Assembly (NCBI RefSeq): GCF_050920415.1
Contig: NZ_CP169309.1
Direction: 5' to 3' (one strand)
DNA from: Escherichia coli
Lineage (GTDB): Bacteria > Pseudomonadota > Gammaproteobacteria > Enterobacterales > Enterobacteriaceae
Length of the DNA stretch: 64,000 nt
A model generated the notes under the pieces. It ran no database searches, was not told where the DNA came from, and saw nothing but the letters and a program-made list of their open reading frames with translations. How positions within the stretch are numbered: the stretch's first letter is position 1; every line of letters begins with the position of its first letter. Positions 12,252 through 15,884 of the stretch are shown piece after piece. The translations under genes and the position numbers were made by a program.

Positions 12252-12614
12252 ATGTTTCTAAACTATTTCGCGTTGGGAGTGCTGATCTTCGTCTTTCTGG
12301 TGATTTTTTATGGAATCATCGCGATACATGACATCCCTTATCTGATTGCCAAAAAGCGCAATCACCCCCATGCCGACGCTATTCATACGGCGGGCTGGGT
12401 GAGCCTGTTTACTCTGCATGTTATCTGGCCGTTCCTGTGGATCTGGGCGACGCTCTATCAACCGGAGCGTGGCTGGGGTATGCAGTCACATGTTGCGTCG
12501 CAGGAGAAAGCGACTGACCCGGAAATCGCCGCACTTTCTGACCGAATTTCCCGGCTGGAGCATCAACTCGCCGCCGAGAAAAACGCTGACTATTCCACGT
12601 TCCCGGAGATCTAA
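12252..12614 (+). CDS. yibI: Small inner-membrane protein YibI (YiaW paralogue)
   Basis: [45 protein letters not shown]...; paralogue of the ORF at 36942; immediately upstream of the HlyD-like gene as in K-12. Confidence 0.75.
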
Positions 12615-13296
12615 TTATGGATCTGTTGATTGTTTTAACTTACGTGGCGCTGGCATGGGCGGTCTTTAAAATCTTCCGTATTCCGGTGAATCAGTGGACG
12701 CTGGCGACGGCGGCGCTGGGAGGCGTTTTTCTGGTAAGCGGTTTGATTTTGTTGATGAACTACAACCACCCTTACACTTTTACCGCACAGAAAGCGGTGA
12801 TTGCTATTCCCATCACGCCACAGGTGACGGGGATCGTGACTGAAGTCACTGACAAGAATAATCAGCTTATTCAGAAGGGCGAGGTGCTTTTTAAGCTCGA
12901 CCCGGTACGTTATCAGGCGCGAGTCGACAGACTTCAGGCTGACCTGATGACGGCGACGCATAATATAAAGACGCTGCGCGCGCAGCTCACTGAAGCGCAA
13001 GCCAATACCACCCAGGTTTCAGCGGAGCGTGACCGCTTGTTTAAAAATTATCAACGTTACCTGAAAGGCAGCCAGGCGGCGGTAAATCCGTTCTCAGAAC
13101 GTGATATCGACGATGCGCGGCAGAATTTTCTCGCGCAGGATGCGCTGGTGAAAGGTTCGGTGGCGGAACAGGCGCAAATCCAGAGCCAGCTCGACTGTCA
13201 GCGCCAATGATATAAGACAGTAATTCACCATTTGGATTGTCCGCTCCACCCAACATGTTGTTTCCTTAAGGTTCCTACACCACAAAGGGAACACTC

Positions 13297-14343
13297 ATGC
13301 TGAGCAGAGAGGACTTTTACATGATAAAGCAAATGCGCCAGCAAGGTGCGTATATTGTTGATATTGCCACTCAGGTTGGTTGCTCTGAGCGGACTGTCAG
13401 ACGGTACCTGAAATACCCGGAACCTCCGGCCAGAAAAACACGCCACAAAATGGCCAAACTCAAGCCGTTCATGGACTATATCGACATGCGTCTGGCTGAG
13501 AATGTCTGGAACGGCGAGGTCATCCTGGCGGAAATCAAAGCGATGGGTTATACCGGTGGCCGTTCCATGTTGCGTTACTACATCCAGCCCAAACGTAAGA
13601 TGCGGCCATCGAAGAAAACGGTTCGCTTCGAAACTCAGCCCGGTTACCAGCTACAGCATGACTGGGGAGAAGTTGAGGCTGAGGTTGCCGGGCAACGATG
13701 CAGGGTTAACTTCGCGGTTAATACGCTGGGGTTCTCACGTCGCTTCCATGTCTTCGCGGCACCAAAGCAGGATGCTGAACATACCTATGAGTCACTGGTC
13801 CGCGCCTTTCGCTACTTCGGCGGCAGCGTGAAAACCGTGCTGGTCGATAACCAGAAAGCCGCAGTGCTGAAAAATAACAACGGGAAGGTGGTGTTCAACT
13901 CCGGGTTCCTGCTGCTGGCCGATCACTATGGCTTCCTGCCACGGGCCTGCCGTCCACGAAGGGCCAGAACCAAAGGTAAGGTGGAACGGATGGTGAAATA
14001 CCTCAAGGAAAACTTCTTCGTCCGGTACCGCCGGTTCGACAGCTTCGCCCATGTTAATCAGCTACTGGAGCAGTGGATGGCTGACGTTGCCGACAGGCGG
14101 GAACTTCGCCAGTTCAGGCAGACACCGGAACAGCGCTTCACGCAGGAACAGGTGCATCTGCAGGCGCTGCCAGGTACGGACTTCGATACCAGCTACTTCG
14201 ATATCCGTCATGTCTCCTGGGATGGCTATATCGAGGTTGGCGGGAACCGTTACAGCGTGCCGGAAAGCCTGTGTGGCCAGCCGGTATCAATACGGATCTC
14301 GCTGGATGATGAACTGCGATTTACAGTAATGAGCAACAGGTAG
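13297..14343 (+). CDS. istA: IS21-family transposase IstA, apparently frameshifted near its 3' end
   Basis: HTH N-terminus and DDE-like core. The ORF stops at 14343, but another frame continues ...[13 protein letters not shown] to a TGA at 14466-14468 that overlaps the istB ATG, the usual istA/istB junction. Confidence 0.7.
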   Translation: MLSREDFYMIKQMRQQGAYIVDIATQVGCSERTVRRYLKYPEPPARKTRHKMAKLKPFMDYIDMRLAENVWNGEVILAEIKAMGYTGGRSMLRYYIQPKRKMRPSKKTVRFETQPGYQLQHDWGEVEAEVAGQRCRVNFAVNTLGFSRRFHVFAAPKQDAEHTYESLVRAFRYFGGSVKTVLVDNQKAAVLKNNNGKVVFNSGFLLLADHYGFLPRACRPRRARTKGKVERMVKYLKENFFVRYRRFDSFAHVNQLLEQWMADVADRRELRQFRQTPEQRFTQEQVHLQALPGTDFDTSYFDIRHVSWDGYIEVGGNRYSVPESLCGQPVSIRISLDDELRFTVMSNR

Positions 14344-14467
14344 CATCGCACCGTCTCTGTTCGGCTGTATACGGCTGGCAGACCGTGCCGGAGCATCACG
14401 CCCCACTCTGGCAGCAGGTCAGTCAGGTGGAACACAGGCCGTTGAGTGCCTATGAGGAGCTGTTGTG

Positions 14468-15262
14468 ATGCATGAACTGGAGACACTGCTGGGTCGTCTT
14501 AAAATGGAACATCTGGGCTACCACGTTGAAAGCCTGCTGGAGCAGGCGGCCAAAAAAGAACTGAACTACCGCGAGTTCCTGTGCATGGCGTTGCAGCAGG
14601 AATGGAACGGGAGGCATCAGCGCAGTATGGAGTCCCGGCTGAAACAGGCCCGCTTCCCGTGGGTCAAAACGCTGGAGCAGTTCGACTTCGGCTTCCAGCC
14701 AGGTATCGATCGTAAGGTCGTCCGTGAGCTGGCCGGGCTGGCGTTCGTGGAGCGTAGCGAGAACGTGATCCTGCTGGGTCCGCCTGGTGTGGGTAAAACG
14801 CACCTGGCAGTCGCTCTCGGGGTAAAAGCGGCGGACGCTGGTCATCGGGTGCTGTTCATGCCACTGGATAAGCTGATCGCCACACTCATGAAGGCAAAAC
14901 AGGAAAACCGGCTGGAAAAACAGCTACAGCAGCTTGGTTATGCCCGGGTACTGATACTGGATGAGATAGGCTATCTGCCGATGACCCGCGAGGAAGCCAG
15001 TCTGTTCTTCCGGTTGCTGAACCGTCGATATGAAAAAGCGAGCATCGTGCTGACGTCAAATAAAGGGTTCGCCGACTGGGGAGAGATGTTCGGCGATAAC
15101 GTGCTGGCAACGGCAATCCTGGATCGACTGCTACACCACTCAACCACACTGAACATCAAAGGAGAAAGCTACCGGTTAAAGGAAAAACGCAAAGCGGGAG
15201 TGCTGGCAAAAAACGCCACGCCAATCAGTGATGATGAAATGGCGGCAAGCGGACAACATTAA
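14468..15262 (+). CDS. istB: IS21-family ATP-binding helper IstB
   Basis: Walker [12 protein letters not shown] and Walker [10 protein letters not shown] motifs. Confidence 0.85.
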
Positions 15263-15884
15263 TGACCAATAGCGGACATTAAAAATGGCGAAAAACGGCC
15301 AATAATCTTGGCGTTGACACGACAGTATGGTTAACGGTGAGCAGTCGCAGATTGTCAGCTTAAGGGCGCAGCTTACCGAAGCGAAATATAACCTTGAGCA
15401 GACCGTCATTCGCGCGCCGAGCAATGGCTACGTTACTCAGGTACTGATCCGCCCAGGTACATACGCAGCTGCCTTGCCGCTACGTCCGGTGATGGTTTTC
15501 ATCCCCGAGCAAAAACGGCAAATTGTCGCCCAATTTCGGCAGAACTCGCTGTTACGTCTGAAACCCGGCGATGATGCGGAAGTAGTGTTTAACGCGCTAC
15601 CTGGGCAGGTGTTCCACGGCAAACTGACTAGTATTTTACCTGTCGTGCCAGGTGGTTCGTATCAGGCGCAGGGGGTACTGCAATCATTAACCGTCGTACC
15701 CGGCACGGACGGTGTGCTGGGAACCATCGAACTGGACCCTAACGCTGATATCGATGCTTTACCCGACGGCATCTACGCCCAGGTGGCAGTTTACTCCGAC
15801 CATTTCAGCCATGTTTCGGTGATGCGGAAGGTGCTGCTAAGAATGACCAGTTGGATGCATTATCTTTATTTGGATCATTGAGGG

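Follow-up and report, generated by a model that had tools for sequence, protein, structure and literature searches.

The 64,000-nucleotide stretch of Escherichia coli DNA analysed here, referred to below as the window, carries two paralogous gene pairs, yibI-yibH and yiaW-yiaV, in each of which a gene for a small inner-membrane protein of the DUF3302 family is directly followed by a gene for a membrane-fusion protein, that is, a periplasmic adaptor. In this strain, yibH is split by the insertion sequence (IS) ISEc62, and, judged from the sequence, one working pair, the accessory yiaWV, is left, the core copy being broken. We propose, with a probability of about 0.6, that each pair forms an inner-membrane complex of a DUF3302 protein and a dedicated EmrA-like adaptor, which would connect with a channel of the TolC type and serve efflux or export. 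The features concerned are listed below, with positions counted from the first letter of the window.

12252-12614, + strand: yibI, 120 amino acids (aa), intact; DUF3302 two-helix inner-membrane protein (open reading frame (ORF), Pfam PF11742, RefSeq yibI)
12617-13195, + strand: yibH 5' fragment, codons 1-193, with two N-terminal hydrophobic helices, a lipoyl half and the first half of the alpha-hairpin (BLASTP against YiaV 1-194; RefSeq pseudogene 'missing C-terminus')
13192-13195, no strand: left copy of the target-site duplication CGAC, read directly from the sequence
13196-15319, + strand: ISEc62, IS21 family, 2124 bp (imperfect terminal inverted repeats; identity to annotated ISEc62 copies)
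13297-14468, + strand: istA transposase (ORF list; Pfam rve and Mu-transpos_C_2)
14468-15262, + strand: istB helper ATPase (Pfam IstB_IS21, E=2e-88)
15320-15323, no strand: right copy of the target-site duplication CGAC, read directly from the sequence
15324-15881, + strand: yibH 3' fragment, codons 194-378, with the second hairpin helix, the beta-barrel and the conserved C-terminal helix (BLASTP against YiaV 195-378; RefSeq pseudogene 'missing N-terminus')
36942-37265, + strand: yiaW, 107 aa, intact paralogue of yibI; DUF3302 (ORF, Pfam, RefSeq)
37271-38407, + strand: yiaV, 378 aa, intact paralogue of yibH; membrane-fusion (periplasmic adaptor) protein (ORF, Pfam HlyD-type domains, NCBIfam and EmrA matches)

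An earlier note on this DNA had proposed that the two pairs are homologous and share their gene order, and pairwise BLASTP alignment bears this out. YibI and YiaW are 74% identical (E=2e-61), while the N-terminal half of YibH matches YiaV residues 1-194 at 73% identity (E=5e-108) and the C-terminal half matches residues 195-378 at 81% (E=6e-115), similarities that far exceed chance. Since the 5' and 3' ORFs match these two consecutive parts of YiaV, they are the two halves of one yiaV paralogue. The spacing is also alike, with an intergenic gap of 2 nt between yibI and yibH and of 5 nt between yiaW and yiaV, and the N-terminal sequences quoted in the earlier note are exact. The yibH 5' ORF (12617-13210, 197 codons) reads into the IS and ends at a stop at 13210; the 3' part starts at the internal ATG 15327 in the mechanical ORF (184 codons, to 15881) and is given as 15321-15881 in RefSeq. 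For yiaW, the start was taken as ATG 36942, which matches YibI and the orthologues, the mechanical ORF beginning at TTG 36912. The four genes and the pseudogene are already present in public annotation, and the novelty at this level is low.

The adaptors have the architecture of the HlyD-type membrane-fusion protein family (TCDB 8.A.1), namely a lipoyl domain, an alpha-hairpin, a beta-barrel and an N-terminal membrane anchor. CusB_dom_1, HlyD_D23 and HlyD_3 are the Pfam domains found above cut-offs in YiaV/YibH, and YiaV has hydrophobic segments at residues 1-20 and 29-49. Its best NCBIfam models are MdtN (NF007785; 114.3 bits versus a cut-off of 376) and EmrA/EmrK (TIGR00998; 113.3 versus 390.8), and its best sequence match in the PDB is E. 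coli EmrA (E=7e-12). An AlphaFold2 (AF2) model was obtained from a YiaW-linker-YiaV fusion with a paired alignment and was used for secondary structure and fold class only. In this model, YiaV has a pair of helices at its N terminus and one helix at its C terminus, together with a lipoyl domain, a beta-barrel and a hairpin whose arms are 56 and 58 residues long, and the predicted local distance difference test (pLDDT) score reaches 85-93 in the hairpin and lipoyl region. Foldseek returned the EmrA chains of EmrAB-TolC (8zal/8zar) as top matches (E=2e-18, target-normalised template modelling (TM) score 0.62), with MacA and AcrA among the further matches. Even the most distant members keep the N-terminal helices and the C-terminal RKxLLRMxxWxxY helix. 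The adaptor is of the EmrA/MdtN type, with two N-terminal hydrophobic anchor helices, a hairpin of about 57 residues per arm and a conserved amphipathic helix at the C terminus.

YibI and YiaW belong to DUF3302 (PF11742), with 140 and 145.5 bits, respectively, versus a gathering score of 32 bits, and with full-length domain coverage; none of the NCBIfam models covers either protein. The family is of modest size, comprising 870 clusters (50% identity, E <= 1e-3), and its 77-residue core is 60-75% identical between representatives of these clusters. P39, A43, W59, P60 and W65 are invariant in a diverse alignment, and the loop R36-x-H38-P39-H40-x-D42-A43-I44-H45 is nearly so. In terms of the window, the nearly invariant elements, which are an H-D motif (YiaW 26-27), the 36-45 loop and an H-x-x-W-P-x-L-W-x-W-A helix (56-65), lie at about 37017-37136. 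The His/Asp cluster looks like a metal-binding or proton-relay site, going by its residues. The AF2 model of YiaW shows long helices at 2-35 and 41-68 and a C-terminal helix at 82-102; the last is modelled as short and amphipathic, with two predicted transmembrane helices preceding it. Hydropathy and charge distribution weakly suggest a topology with the N terminus out, the loop in and the C terminus out. Searches of the PDB for DUF3302 relatives returned chance-level matches only (E >= 0.05). A relationship with DUF1656 (PF07869; AaeX/YdhI) was considered and rejected, as BLASTP found none, hhalign gave a probability of 0.2-0.5% and Pfam places AaeX and YdhI in DUF1656 and YiaW in DUF3302 only.

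The pairing of the two genes is strongly conserved. In a scan of one genome per species (555 relatives, with 80 loci fetched, mostly from Enterobacterales), a DUF3302 gene was followed by a YiaV-like gene on the same strand in 79 of the 80 loci, usually with a gap of 2-5 nt, and the 80th locus lies at a contig edge. On rechecking the apparent exceptions, the adaptor gene proved intact in one locus (L033), stopped at the contig edge in another (L023) and was frameshifted in the last (L081). This last gene, from Leclercia adecarboxylata NCTC13032 (L081:7360-8494), is YibH/YiaV-like and has its frameshift at codon 35, representing either natural inactivation or an assembly error. The pairing was also found in Rhizobium, Aeromonas, Ferrimonas, Labrys okinawensis, a Colwelliaceae genome and several metagenome contigs; several other metagenome contigs were too short to include the neighbouring genes. 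With a gap of 2-5 nt, the adaptor gene is almost certainly translationally coupled to the DUF3302 gene. No third gene is generally conserved beside the pair in the loci examined. In one metagenomic clade, an OEP (TolC-family) gene lies 11 nt upstream of the DUF3302 gene, which is then followed by the adaptor gene, and one 50-kb contig carries a gene for a FUSC_2/DUF2955 membrane protein downstream of the pair.

Within E. coli, yibIH (as the restored sequence) is contiguous in 5384 of 5426 complete genomes and yiaWV in 3769 of them; yibIH is the core locus and yiaWV is accessory. In UTI89, yiaWV is absent, araD abutting aldB there and yiaT-yiaW having been lost altogether. Synonymous divergence (dS) and the ratio of nonsynonymous to synonymous divergence (dN/dS) were calculated by the Nei-Gojobori method. 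Between the paralogues, dS is saturated at 2.19 for YibI and YiaW (dN/dS 0.081, protein identity 78.5%) and at 2.60 for YibH and YiaV (dN/dS 0.067, protein identity 77.2%); saturated dS (> 2) together with low dN/dS indicates that the duplication is ancient and that both copies are constrained. In Citrobacter and Pseudocitrobacter genomes, both pairs are present and are separated by a few kb. The pairs are ancient duplicates of one conserved two-gene operon. Restored yibH differs from K-12 yibH with a dS of 0.27 and a dN/dS of 0.004 (protein identity 99.7%), and this low ratio despite the synonymous divergence implies that constraint on yibH lasted until very recently. At synonymous sites, the yibH allele is unusually divergent from that of K-12, with only one amino-acid change per approximately 380 residues, and the adjacent yibI has a dS of 0.037; this contrast suggests a recombination breakpoint between both genes, at the edge of a hypervariable island. 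Only 2 of 5406 genomes have a yibIH sequence with 99% identity or more to that of the window.

The element between the yibH halves is assigned to the IS21 family by its istA (rve) and istB (IstB_IS21) genes, its inverted ends, the CGAC duplication, which is short as in this family (4-8 bp), and the ISEc62 label in RefSeq. Its imperfect inverted ends read TGTCAGCGCCAA... on the left and ...TTGGCGTTGACA on the right, and many chromosomes and plasmids of E. coli carry elements annotated as ISEc62 to which it is 98-99.4% identical. A single ISEc62 copy is present within the window, and this insertion is carried by 1 of the 5426 complete E. coli genomes. In silico removal of the IS and one CGAC yields an uninterrupted 1137-nt ORF of 378 codons, and neither yibH half contains any further disabling change. 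Given that the restored protein is 99.7% identical to YibH of K-12, the insertion is recent. The statement of the earlier note that only the yibH copy is disrupted by an IS agrees with the IS21-family element between the halves, with the RefSeq pseudogene fragments and with the intact yiaV. Its description of this copy as inactivated holds as far as the split ORF is concerned, and loss of activity is the likely consequence of that split.

We consider it very improbable that the organism has an uninterrupted yibH and that the break arose in assembly or sequencing. The window matches the RefSeq record NZ_CP169399.1 (chromosome of E. coli strain MFDS1022581) across the whole region of the finding; in its first 50 kb, it differs from that record by four substitutions (1442, 31762, 41979 and 42180) and two 1-nt homopolymer indels, and both indels, which look like homopolymer sequencing errors, are inside this IS, pointing to residual sequence error in the region. 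However, as they fall within the IS, they leave the junctions unaffected; the junctions are exact, the 4-bp target duplication is typical of IS21-family transposition, and the deposited complete genome shows the same structure, annotated as two yibH pseudogene fragments flanking istA and istB. In the window, istA has a 1-nt deletion near 14318 (G for GG) that leads to a stop at 14341-14343 and istB is intact, whereas istB is frameshifted in the RefSeq record (A5 for A6 near 14552). Since the gene that is frameshifted depends on the sequence version, the activity of this ISEc62 copy is uncertain. We tried and rejected an outward promoter at the right end of the IS, where the terminal TTGACA lacks a suitably spaced -10 element, and expression of the 3' yibH fragment is unsupported, with no Shine-Dalgarno sequence ahead of the internal ATG 15327. 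The core copy yibH was split recently in this strain by ISEc62 transposition; yibI may still be produced, and the intact yiaWV probably covers the function.

That the function of these pairs is unknown, as the earlier note stated, still holds: the literature searched assigns none to yibI, yibH, yiaW or yiaV, and YiaV is listed as an uncharacterized membrane-fusion protein, TCDB 8.A.1.1.4 (PMC10971958). In K-12, yibH serves as a neutral integration site and its deletion is tolerated (PMC5852967). In UTI89, yibI and yibH are induced in urine, and deletion of yibI gives a competitive index of 0.33 in urine and reduced adhesion (PMC5404293). This phenotype in a strain with yibIH only, compared with the neutrality in K-12, which has both pairs, fits redundancy, which we infer from that contrast. 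An IS1 insertion in yiaW, found in a macrophage-evolved clone, had by itself no phenotype in a phagosome-maturation (LAMP1) assay (PMC5495878). Deletion of yiaW reportedly increases the efficiency of Ca2+-mediated transformation (as cited in PMC12844161), and yiaV is mildly induced, 1.5-fold, in mixed biofilm (PMC3646849). The 3' ends of yiaV and of yiaU, a LysR-type gene convergent with it, share 4 nt (38404-38407), and convergent transcription could couple their expression. YiaU itself was considered as the regulator of yiaWV and rejected, since ChIP-exo/RNA-seq lists yiaT, waa and adeP, not yiaWV (PMC9068703). Rfam scanning of 11000-39500 returned no RNA family, and scans for promoters and terminators ahead of yibI and yiaW gave nothing above shuffled expectation.

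The reading that we favour takes the DUF3302 protein to be the dedicated membrane partner of this adaptor subfamily: the two proteins would assemble into one inner-membrane complex, and the adaptor ring would span the periplasm to a TolC-type outer-membrane channel, giving a conduit for efflux or export. The suggestion in the earlier note of an efflux or export accessory unit is consistent with the EmrA-like fold, the MdtN and EmrA models, the adjacency of DUF3302 and adaptor genes and the rare OEP/FUSC linkage, and falls short of proof. Several observations weigh against it. To our knowledge, every characterised adaptor of the EmrA type works with an inner-membrane transporter, and no transporter gene lies beside either pair in the window, in K-12 or in most other genomes. 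The linkage to an outer-membrane factor gene and that to a FUSC gene are known from one lineage each, and the literature searched links none of the four genes to an efflux phenotype. The scores of YiaV, far below the MdtN and EmrA/EmrK cut-offs, place it in a separate subfamily whose partners are not transferable by homology. Finally, the fused AF2 model is of moderate quality (mean pLDDT 66, predicted TM score 0.39, membrane part 55-69), and contact between YiaW and YiaV is unsupported in it.

How the conduit would be energised separates two variants, to which we give roughly equal weight. It is possible, if improbable, that the two pairs work with at least one inner-membrane transporter whose gene lies elsewhere, such as a FUSC orphan, mirroring aaeXAB and ydhIJK. 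These operons share the layout of a small protein followed by an adaptor, YiaV is distantly homologous to AaeA and YdhJ and has MdtN as its best curated model, and the FUSC_2/DUF2955 contig supplies one metagenomic lineage with a pump gene of this kind; moreover, YeeA, YccS and YhfK of K-12 belong to the FUSC superfamily and have no adaptor gene alongside, which would make them candidate partners, nothing more. On the other hand, FUSC linkage was found once only, and the hhalign probability between DUF3302 and DUF1656 is below 1%. More doubtfully, the pair may be self-sufficient, with a DUF3302 oligomer and the adaptor membrane helices forming the conduit to TolC in place of a canonical MFS, ABC, RND or FUSC pump. 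Across Alpha- and Gammaproteobacteria, the DUF3302-adaptor pair alone is conserved as a unit, the stretch sequenced around the OEP-DUF3302-adaptor operon contains no pump gene, the degree of conservation of the DUF3302 core, with its five invariant residues, is unusual, and the adaptor has extra conserved membrane elements in its two N-terminal helices and its C-terminal RKxLLRMxxW helix. Yet nothing in a two-helix protein is recognisable as an energy-coupling module, a pump gene may lie past the end of the OEP-linked contigs, which measure only about 2.3 kb or less, and no structural precedent exists, the PDB containing no DUF3302 relative. An equally doubtful extension would make of this a self-contained envelope-spanning class, in which DUF3302, with its His/Asp-rich loop, replaces the energised pump under a TolC-type channel and at least one functional pair (core yibIH or accessory yiaWV) is retained in E. 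coli through redundancy.

A role outside transport, in which the adaptor fold acts as a periplasm-spanning scaffold with an envelope-structural or stress function (barrier integrity, adhesion), appears unlikely. The phenotypes of the UTI89 yibI deletion, adhesion and urine fitness, concern the envelope and the host rather than drugs (PMC5404293), and the reported gain in transformation on yiaW deletion (as cited in PMC12844161) and the response of yiaV in mixed biofilm (PMC3646849) point in the same direction. Nevertheless, these phenotypes also fit the export of an envelope or surface molecule, and the fold, the length of the hairpin and the linkage to a TolC-family gene match efflux adaptors.

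As it stands, the finding is an annotated strain-specific pseudogene within a known gene pair, and little changes. Still, almost every E. coli genome carries yibIH, on which purifying selection is very strong, and the unit of DUF3302 and a special adaptor is conserved well beyond enterobacteria. If the pair works without a classical pump, or is the missing adaptor of orphan FUSC-type transporters, it would close a gap among the known TolC-dependent systems. This strain, with yiaWV only, and UTI89, with yibIH only, are natural single-pair backgrounds in which redundancy is directly testable.

Other features of the window differ from K-12 or deserve mention. Downstream of yibH (15961-28324), the rhsA/yibA-yibV region of K-12 is replaced by a segment with remnants of ISAs1 transposase (15961-16457 and 18300-18572), a gene of the N-acetylmuramidase family that overlaps an EF-hand domain gene, and two tssI/vgrG genes accompanied by hypothetical cargo genes. 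Between aldB and yiaW (35836-36759), where K-12 has an intergenic gap only, there are a hicA-hicB toxin-antitoxin pair and, on the opposite strand, an ORF for a hypothetical membrane protein of 104 aa. According to its annotation, yiaO (48527-49513), which encodes the protein that binds substrate for the 2,3-diketo-L-gulonate TRAP transporter, contains an internal stop in this strain, and a gene for a YadA-like trimeric autotransporter adhesin of 1658 aa lies near the window start (560-5536).

Compared with known systems, the insertion in yibH resembles other ISEc62 and IS21-family elements in having istA (helix-turn-helix and rve DDE domain) followed by istB (AAA+ helper), termini of the form TGT... 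and ...ACA and a 4-bp target duplication, and differs from them in that one of the two genes of this copy is frameshifted. The adaptors resemble EmrA (EmrAB-TolC, 8zal/8zar; Aquifex EmrA, 4tko) in being membrane-anchored proteins with a lipoyl domain, a long hairpin and a beta-barrel and without a membrane-proximal domain. They differ from it in sequence (only ~20% identity) and in neighbourhood, as no emrB-like MFS gene lies beside YiaV/YibH and a DUF3302 gene always precedes; YiaV also has two N-terminal hydrophobic helices, where EmrA has one, and a family-specific conserved C-terminal helix. The closest parallel in gene layout is with aaeX-aaeA-aaeB and ydhI-ydhJ-ydhK, where the gene for a small two-helix membrane protein likewise lies directly upstream of the adaptor gene. 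Both operons encode a small DUF1656 protein, an adaptor and a FUSC/ArAE pump, and MdtNOP is of the same pump type. In E. coli, no FUSC gene follows yiaV or yibH; YiaV is a distant homologue of AaeA (21% identity) and YdhJ (24%), with a hairpin approximately 57 residues longer than that of AaeA. As DUF3302 has no detectable homology to DUF1656, the layout shared with aaeXAB and ydhIJK reflects either analogy or very remote ancestry.

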